Under the pieces are notes generated by a model. It worked only from the letters and a program-made list of their open reading frames with translations. It was not told the origin of the DNA and ran no database searches. Shown here in pieces: positions 21,562-22,095 of a stretch of 32,000 nt of DNA. The translations under genes and the position numbers were made by a program. Every line of letters starts with the position of its first letter. Position 1 is the stretch's first letter. The stretch is from Candidatus Harpocratesius repetitus (GTDB taxonomy: Archaea; Asgardarchaeota; Lokiarchaeia; Sigyniarchaeales; Promethearchaeaceae), in NCBI GenBank assembly GCA_021498095.1, contig JAIZWK010000001.1, forward strand, positions 3,210,001 to 3,242,000, read 5' to 3'.

Positions 21562-21655
21562 TCAAAATAGGTAAAGGAAAAAAAAAGATAAATTTATCCT
21601 CTTTTTATTAGAACTCTACTTGTTAGTAAAAAAAAGTTGAAAATGTTGAAGCATT

Positions 21656-21742
21656 AAATTCCCAGACAATCGGCTTTGTGTAAATATATTCTCCTTTTGT
21701 GATGTAAAGTTTTGGAATATATTTCATCCATAAAGGGAATTT
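21656..21742 (-). promoter_or_regulatory. Candidate SECIS element in the 3' UTR (eukaryote/Loki-like, variant core)
   Basis: Minus-strand RNA: helix I CUUUAUG/CACAAAG, then G-AUGA, helix II AAAUAUAUUC/GAAUAUAUUU, unpaired AAAA, mini-stem CUUU/AAAG. Starts within 15 nt of the stop of a UGA-containing ORF. Confidence 0.6.
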
Positions 21743-21747
21743 TTGAA

Positions 21748-22095
21748 TCATATATCTGATGCGCTGGTTCTCTTCCTTTGATTTTTTGGCGGAATTAAAA
21801 AAAGATTTCGATAAACAGCCCAACCACTTAATACAATTTGAGCATCATTCCACCAGGATATTAGTGAATTTTGAATTAAAATAGGAACTGGACATTTTTC
21901 ATGGAATTTTTCGGTGAATTTTCTTTTAAAATCATCATCTTTTTTGATACTATCTCGTGAAATAATGCTTGTTAGTGCCACTCTCGATTCCCCGCATCAA
22001 CCTCTATAAATTTTTTCTGTAATTAGTATAATCGGAAAAGAAATTCCTTCCATTTTTTCTTTAATAAATTGTATTGCTTCTTCAGAGAACTTCAT
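21748..22095 (-). CDS. Putative selenoprotein, HesB-like/CC-Se motif family (in-frame UGA at 21997-21999, codon 33)
   Basis: MKFSEEAIQFIKEKMEGISFPIILITEKIYRG-U-CGESRVALT...VPILIQNSLISWWNDAQIVLSGWAVYRNLFL; 115 aa if UGA is read as Sec. The track reports only the part after the UGA (21748..21981). Confidence 0.75.

Follow-up and report, generated by a model that had tools for sequence, protein, structure and literature searches.

A candidate SECIS element with UA in place of the conserved GA behind an IscA/HesB-fold selenoprotein gene of a Lokiarchaeia-class archaeon

An IscA/HesB-fold selenoprotein gene and its family

The window analysed here is a stretch of 32,000 nucleotides from Candidatus Harpocratesius repetitus, whose genome (G000) is a single contig of 4.36 Mb with about 30% G+C. 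Its minus strand carries a gene of 115 codons (21751..22095), which runs from the ATG at 22095 to a UGA stop codon (21750-21748) through one in-frame UGA at 21999-21997. This UGA, codon 33, would be read as selenocysteine (Sec) within the motif Y-R-G-U-C-G. The AUGA core of a putative SECIS element (21656-21742, minus strand) begins 23 nt past the stop codon, with codon 33 lying 272 nt upstream of it, and a tract of eight U residues (21628..21635, minus strand) is located 21 nt 3' of the element. Judged by its sequence, the tract is likely an archaeal transcription terminator, which would put the SECIS inside the mRNA. The genes flanking the host gene are ordinary and none of them encodes a selenoprotein. 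The stop codon is UAA in the relative L009, a genome with about 90% nucleotide identity to that of the window; if the UGA stop were recoded too, translation would not meet another in-frame stop until the UGA within the AUGA core, 8 codons further on. A 34-nt hairpin-forming repeat, TTGAAGAATTTATAAACAGGATGGTAAATTTTTA, is present in 52 copies in the genome (with up to 3 mismatches), one of them in the window at about 29487 (plus strand).

The genome encodes tRNA-Sec, SepSecS (347 bits), a PSTK/KTI12-type kinase and Sec-containing SelD, VhuD and VhuU, and is therefore that of a Sec user. Selenoprotein genes of its relatives from the same class bear the eukaryote-like SECIS known from Lokiarchaeia. 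The host protein was modelled with AlphaFold (pLDDT 88.9), and the model matched the IscA/SufA/HesB fold, with the U-C pair located in the turn of a beta-hairpin. Sequence searches against Pfam and the PDB gave weak matches only, and it was the fold search that led to IscA/HesB. The NCBIfam model NF041239, "CC/Se motif family (seleno)protein", matched 16 of 18 members of the host family at E<=0.01 (best E 1.8e-9). The host protein itself reached 19.1 bits (E 1e-3), under the curated cut-off of 40 bits; by these scores it is a distant relative of NF041239 and no certified member.

A search of 161 genomes of the class and 400 of the phylum located homologues of the host gene at about 35 sites, spread over 17-18 genomes. 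The family is concentrated in one family of the Lokiarchaeia class, being present in 12 of its 13 genomes with 2-5 copies per genome; the phylum-wide search gave no additional family members and no additional UA cores, and a search of metagenome and genome contigs with the host protein as single query gave no match. Every homologue that bears the motif has TGA at one and the same alignment column (YRG-U-CG) and conserved sequence beyond it, showing that the element stands behind a real UGA-containing gene, as the first-pass annotation of the sequence had implied. That annotation had also named an equal presence of the structure behind Cys orthologues as evidence against its reading. Such evidence did not emerge: of three distant homologues that lack the TGA and have Cys or Ala in its place, two had no SECIS-like match nearby, and the 3' UTR of the third showed none either. 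Seven Asgard selenoprotein families are given by Huang et al. (2024, PMC11227280), in a text from which HesB and IscA are both absent, and the U-C-motif family with the IscA/HesB fold lies outside these seven.

Three paralogues of the host gene are present in the same genome, at 1470514-1470807 (minus strand), 2400900-2401232 (plus strand) and 2668775-2669080 (minus strand), all with a SECIS of the GA type. The paralogue at 2668775-2669080 contains two adjacent in-frame TGA codons (..K-G-U-U-G..), a potential Sec-Sec pair. This group has orthologues in G002, G006, G007, G010, G011 and G013, and a canonical AUGA..GA SECIS is found about 30 nt past the stop.

Architecture of the SECIS element

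Read 5' to 3' along the minus strand, the element starts with the 5' strand of an outer helix, AAAUUCCC (21735..21742), which pairs with the 3' strand GGGAAUUU (21656..21663) and is identical in L009. The 5' junction strand that follows, UUUAUGG (21728..21734), is unpaired in the comparative model; at this place the paralogues have 4-6 nt ending in G-purine. The AUGA core (21724..21727), in which G is 1b and A is 2b in k-turn numbering, is invariant across the 34 SECIS elements of the alignment. At 3b, A 21723 leads into the 5' strand of the upper stem, AUAUAUUC (together 21715..21723), and the partner strand consists of GAAUAUAU followed by the 3n nucleotide U 21683 (together 21683..21691). 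The upper helix has 8 Watson-Crick pairs (21722-21715/21691-21684), or 10 when A-U at 21723/21683 and 21724/21682 is included; it contains a single G-C pair, and S-S triplets are absent. Between the two strands lies an apical region of 23 nt (21692..21714), composed of C-AAAA, a possible mini-stem CUUU/AAAG with an 8-nt loop, and GA. The unpaired AAAA is located at 21713-21710, and the apical CAAAACUU fits the loop consensus of the family, (A/U)AAAC(U/C)U, with C-AAAA-C at 21714-21709. After the stem, UA (21681..21682) stands in place of GA: U 21682 is 2n and A 21681 is the conserved 1n adenine. A single C separates this dinucleotide from a 3' side hairpin, ACAA-AGCCGA-UUGU (21666..21679), the predicted third arm of a three-way junction, and CU separates the hairpin from GGGAAUUU. 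Several features noted at first pass are present in the sequence, namely AUGA, a helix of roughly 10 bp, AAAA, the outer helix, and UUAC at 21683-21680 in place of the NGAC of relatives. The mini-stem (21709-21706 with 21697-21694), for which the element had been called type II-like, is possible in the sequence, but it is a folding prediction without covariation.

The 3' UTRs of 21 paralogues and orthologues were parsed, and all of them read AUGA-N-[7-8 bp], a loop of 9-17 nt starting with (A/U)AAAC, and [stem]-N-GA-(C/U). The upper stem of the family covaries, with two-sided changes at 8 of 8 pairs and 95.6% of the cells paired, and shuffles and slid registers come nowhere near this result. 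Folding and covariation had both been proposed as checks: covariation supports the upper stem at every pair, whereas the single-sequence fold of the window element was modestly better than shuffles, with a z of only about -2.

A covariance model, R1, was built from 17 SECIS elements of paralogues and orthologues, from which the window element and that of L009 were left out. R1 matched 21679-21732 (minus strand) with 26.3 bits (E 6e-4), which was the top match in the 32-kb window, the next one reaching 13.4 bits, and the window element was aligned from end to end through AUGA, the stem, the AAAAC loop and xAC. Genuine SECIS elements outside the training set scored 24.5-29.9 bits, among them L023, L057, L058 and L059 with 25-28 bits and the SECIS of VhuD with 24.5 bits. 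The genome-wide noise ceiling of R1 lies at about 21 bits, an approximate value obtained with 150 of 12,559 candidates scored and the window element itself missed. Two hand-written pattern scans of the genome were swamped by chance AU-rich hairpins and a dispersed repeat, so that they do not yield a count of UA-type cores; among the matches to TA-type patterns, the window element is the only one behind a convincing Sec gene. With Rfam, the window and the region gave no SECIS family at the gathering score or at E<=10, and the published search pattern for Asgard archaea requires GA_[G/A]A (PMC11227280), showing that standard models miss the element, as the first-pass annotation had anticipated. 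By homology over its whole length, the window SECIS is of common descent with accepted SECIS elements, and its description as a eukaryote-like Asgard SECIS with A opposite U for the second sheared A.G pair is borne out by the R1 score and the alignment of 34 elements.

For the lower part of the element, a C-helix CUUUAUG/CACAAAG beside a 3-nt GAU bulge had been proposed, and this helix is not supported by the comparison. It contains an A.C mismatch, it is broken in L009 by a U-to-A change at 21730 (L009 also has A for G at 21728), and it has no counterpart in any paralogue. In addition, it competes with the side hairpin at 21679-21666, which is homologous to hairpins of the orthologues. The comparison favours an outer helix with a small 3' side hairpin, i.e. 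a three-way junction. The outer helix is homologous to the UUCCC/GGGGAA outer helix of the orthologues L013, L026 and L028, and the side hairpin is homologous to CCAA-AGCCA-UUGG of L013, where a C-G pair corresponds to an A-U pair of the window element, both partners having changed. Constrained folds, with the upper stem fixed and the core unpaired, showed the outer helix, the side hairpin and the upper stem in 19 of 23 SECIS elements of the family; the same three-part fold was obtained in 27% of flank shuffles. In unconstrained folding, A/U at 2b.2n and 3b.3n merely extend the helix.

By eye, the SECIS elements of VhuD, VhuU and SelD have a similar architecture. The 5' junction strands of SECIS elements are 4-7 nt long, and the side hairpin is on the opposite strand. 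A three-way junction for Asgard SECIS elements is not described in PMC4989117 (Mariotti et al., 2016) or PMC11227280. At the SECIS loci examined, e.g. L014:1387-1513 (minus strand) and the VhuD locus L071, a small hairpin right after the 3' GA is enclosed by the outer helix, and the sequences of the outer and side helices of Lokiarchaeial SECIS elements differ between gene groups.

The UA core and its relation to known systems

Of the 34 aligned SECIS elements, 32 have GA directly 3' of the stem, and the window element and that of L009 have UA instead. The element sequence was searched for an alternative register yielding a canonical GA/GA core, and none was found. U 21682 is also present in the separate assembly L009 and in a contig of depth 57 from a run of 2025, and it is therefore no sequencing error. 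This contig bears the same differences as L009 and probably represents the same lineage and no independent one; another sequencing run covers only part of the host coding region. The gene order orf142, thioredoxin, host gene, TPR protein and kinase identifies two sets of orthologues: L011, which belongs to a different species of the genus, and L013, L025, L026 and L028, which belong to a sister genus. All of these have a SECIS with GA, and those of L011 and L013 have the outer helix and an AAAGCC hairpin in common with the window element. Since same-genus and sister-genus orthologues in synteny have GA, the U is derived, recent and specific to the lineage of the window genome and L009. On this comparison it is no ancestral intermediate and without bearing on the ancestral state, so that the expectation that the element would be informative on the archaeal-to-eukaryotic SECIS transition was not confirmed.

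Other cores were found at further Sec genes. The vhuU SECIS in L074 (G000, from 1500012) and L075 (G002) reads AUGC-A-[UUUUUCUC]...[GAGAAAAA]-G-AA, with C at 2b and A at 2n, and the vhuU SECIS in G001, G006, G007, G010 and G011 reads AUGA...GA. The VhuU protein is 94-98% identical between G000 and G002, and the AUGC..AA core therefore presumably works. In the SelD SECIS, located in the 3' UTR at 3802287 of G000 (minus strand), ACGA takes the place of AUGA or GUGA, so that the core reads ACGA...GA.

The G.A pair at 1b.1n is formed in the window element by G 21725 opposite A 21681, in a register set by the covarying stem, and it is retained in AUGA_AA, in the AUGC..AA of vhuU and in the ACGA..GA of SelD. 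Within one genus, the second pair is A.G in most genes, A.U in the window element and apparently C.A in vhuU, and A.A has been published elsewhere. Comparison of these cores suggests that position 2b.2n is not rigid in Lokiarchaeial SECIS elements and may not be a strict determinant in these archaea.

The lokiSECIS, or eSECIS-like structure of Asgard archaea, has been described in two studies (Mariotti et al., 2016, PMC4989117; Huang et al., 2024, PMC11227280). Like the lokiSECIS, the window element is located in the 3' UTR just past a selenoprotein gene, in a Lokiarchaeia-class genome with archaeal Sec machinery, and it has AUGA before a stem of about 9 bp, adenines that open the apical region and a conserved A after the stem. 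By definition, the upper stem of a lokiSECIS measures 7-15 bp, or about 9, and contains no more than 2 mismatches; the 8 Watson-Crick pairs plus the A/U pair of the window element fall within this range. The core is different: only AUGA_GA, AUGA_AA and GUGA_GA have been described for lokiSECIS elements (AUGA_AA in both studies), whereas the window element has AUGA_UA and thus departs from the GA (or AA) after the stem in the GA_[G/A]A quartet. Furthermore, the apical region of 23 nt is too long for type I, which has a loop of 8-20 nt, and the 8-nt loop of the predicted 4-bp mini-stem is too long for type II, whose mini-stem has 2-8 bp, with 4-12 nt in the bulge and 2-6 nt in the terminal loop.

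With the eukaryotic SECIS I/II (RF00031) the window element shares AUGA, the position of the G.A sheared pair, a helix II of about 10 bp, unpaired adenines and the optional mini-stem. It is unlike the eukaryotic SECIS, and without an Rfam match, in having UA for the 3' GA that is treated as invariant there (PMC4989117), and in a lower part that resembles a three-way junction and not helix I with an internal loop. According to the literature, SBP2 has not been detected in Asgard archaea (PMC4989117). The euryarchaeal GAA_A SECIS (PMC4989117) is defined by a lower stem rich in G and C, by a GAA/A bulge and by a short upper stem that holds three G-C pairs; the window element, with its upper stem of 8 bp and a single G-C pair, is not of this type.

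A k-turn with A.U at 2b.2n is known from Kt-23 of the Thermus thermophilus 16S rRNA, which folds with normal geometry (Schroeder and Lilley, 2009, PMC2790904). The A.U is tolerated in Kt-23 because 3b.3n is non-Watson-Crick (U.G); a Watson-Crick 3b.3n impaired folding, and in Kt-7 A.U at 2b.2n abolishes ion-induced folding (PMC2790904). Compared on sequence alone, the window element has, like Kt-23, G.A at 1b.1n and then A opposite U at 2b.2n; unlike Kt-23, its 3b.3n is A/U and able to pair Watson-Crick. The analogy drawn in the first-pass annotation is therefore partial: a k-turn with A.U at 2b.2n exists, but Kt-23 needs a non-Watson-Crick pair at 3b.3n. Unlike a standard k-turn, the window element has no conserved C-helix directly beside a 3-nt bulge. 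In the k-junction of TPP riboswitches, the non-bulged strand of a k-turn is interrupted by a third helix (Wang et al., 2014, PMC4005666), and in the window element as in nearly all Lokiarchaeial SECIS elements examined, a side hairpin comes directly after the 1n adenine. This likeness is purely topological, and the 5' junction strand of the SECIS elements is longer (4-7 nt plus AU).

Selection on the element and its probable function

The window genome was compared with L009 in one pairwise comparison of two closely related genomes, both of which have the U. Only 3 of the 87 positions of the element differ, 21730 and 21728 in the 5' junction strand and 21702 in the apical loop, all of them unpaired. 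The element is thus 96.6% identical, whereas pooled intergenic DNA (range 75-86%) is 81% identical (Fisher p = 8e-5) and third codon positions reach 83.5% (p = 0.003); for the neighbouring genes, dS values of 0.26-0.59 were obtained. No stop interrupts the frame after the UGA in either genome, and its 82 codons show 13 synonymous and 18 non-synonymous changes, corresponding to a dN/dS of 0.32 (binomial p = 0.006). The element and the frame after the UGA are under purifying selection. For the host gene as a whole the dN/dS is 0.28, which is 2-5 times that of its neighbours (0.05-0.16), and before the UGA it is 0.11.

The reading that we prefer, with a probability of about 0.68, is that the window element acts as SECIS for the mRNA of the IscA/HesB-fold selenoprotein encoded upstream, being a homologue of the lokiSECIS in which the G at 2n has mutated to U, and a functional variant specific to this lineage. 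The 3' UTR would fold into a three-way junction consisting of the outer helix, the small 3' side hairpin and the upper stem with its A-rich loop. In the core, AUGA/UA would keep its sheared pair G(1b).A(1n), with A.U in place of A.G. This fold would recruit the archaeal Sec-decoding machinery, that is the Sec-tRNA and the elongation factor, possibly via a k-turn-binding protein, and the UGA 272 nt upstream would then be decoded as selenocysteine. Function is suggested because the element is so much better conserved than intergenic DNA and because the frame after the UGA has a dN/dS of 0.32; that the U form kinks and supports recoding is what we infer from this. The functional variant postulated at first pass is accordingly backed indirectly, by conservation and by selection after the UGA.

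Less probable, and the main alternative, is a weakened or decaying SECIS, in which the recent G-to-U change impairs the kink, Sec is inserted inefficiently and the relaxed gene is heading to loss or to Cys; the element could then still be recognised only for lack of time since the change. GA is kept in all 32 other aligned SECIS elements, and the folding behaviour of Kt-7 and Kt-23 speaks against a kink if 3b.3n pairs normally. Behind the UGA, dN/dS exceeds both the value before it and those of the neighbours, the probability that the frame stays open under 31 random substitutions is 0.195 and thus not low, and the three GA-type paralogues in the same genome could cover the function. However, the U is older than the split from L009, across which neighbouring genes have a dS of 0.26-0.59, and the 3 changes since then are at unpaired positions and far fewer than in nearby neutral DNA. 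Purifying selection persists after the UGA, and against G002, where the SECIS is canonical, the gene outpaces its neighbours to the same degree (48% identity vs 71-85% for the neighbours).

It is very unlikely that recoding of the UGA is driven by another signal, a second RNA element or a SECIS acting in trans, with the UA element being vestigial. One SECIS serves two genes, hdrA-vhuD, in Lokiarchaeota (PMC4989117), which would be a precedent for such sharing. A case of a gene without an obvious element of its own is the G001 orthologue L012:1852-1985 (plus strand), which is intact with its UGA in a syntenic locus; no recognisable SECIS was found within 130 nt of its stop, with no model match at E<=10 and a fold z of -0.5. 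Against another signal at the window locus stand the 13.4 bits of the second-best R1 match in the 32 kb and the flanking genes, which are not selenoprotein genes, and the conservation of the UA element itself would need explaining. A chance AU-rich hairpin or an assembly error can practically be dismissed: AUGA-stem-NA patterns are abundant in a genome of about 30% G+C and the z of the single-sequence fold is small, but the R1 match is homologous from end to end, the element lies directly behind a Sec gene, its outer helix and side hairpin are common with the syntenic orthologues, and the U recurs in a separate assembly as well as in the contig from another run.

Tentatively, and with considerable doubt, Lokiarchaeial SECIS elements could be k-junction-like three-way junctions whose reader needs only G(1b).A(1n) and the apical adenines, the second pair being free to vary. 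Should this be true, SECIS recognition in these archaea would follow a mode that is distinct from, and older than, the dependence of SBP2 on the GA/GA quartet. Pattern-based surveys of selenoproteomes can miss genes with cores of the AUGA_UA type; no eSECIS-like structure was detected for about 15% of Asgard selenoprotein genes (PMC11227280). Together with its orthologues, the window element provides a natural U/G pair for probing what the archaeal SECIS reader recognises.
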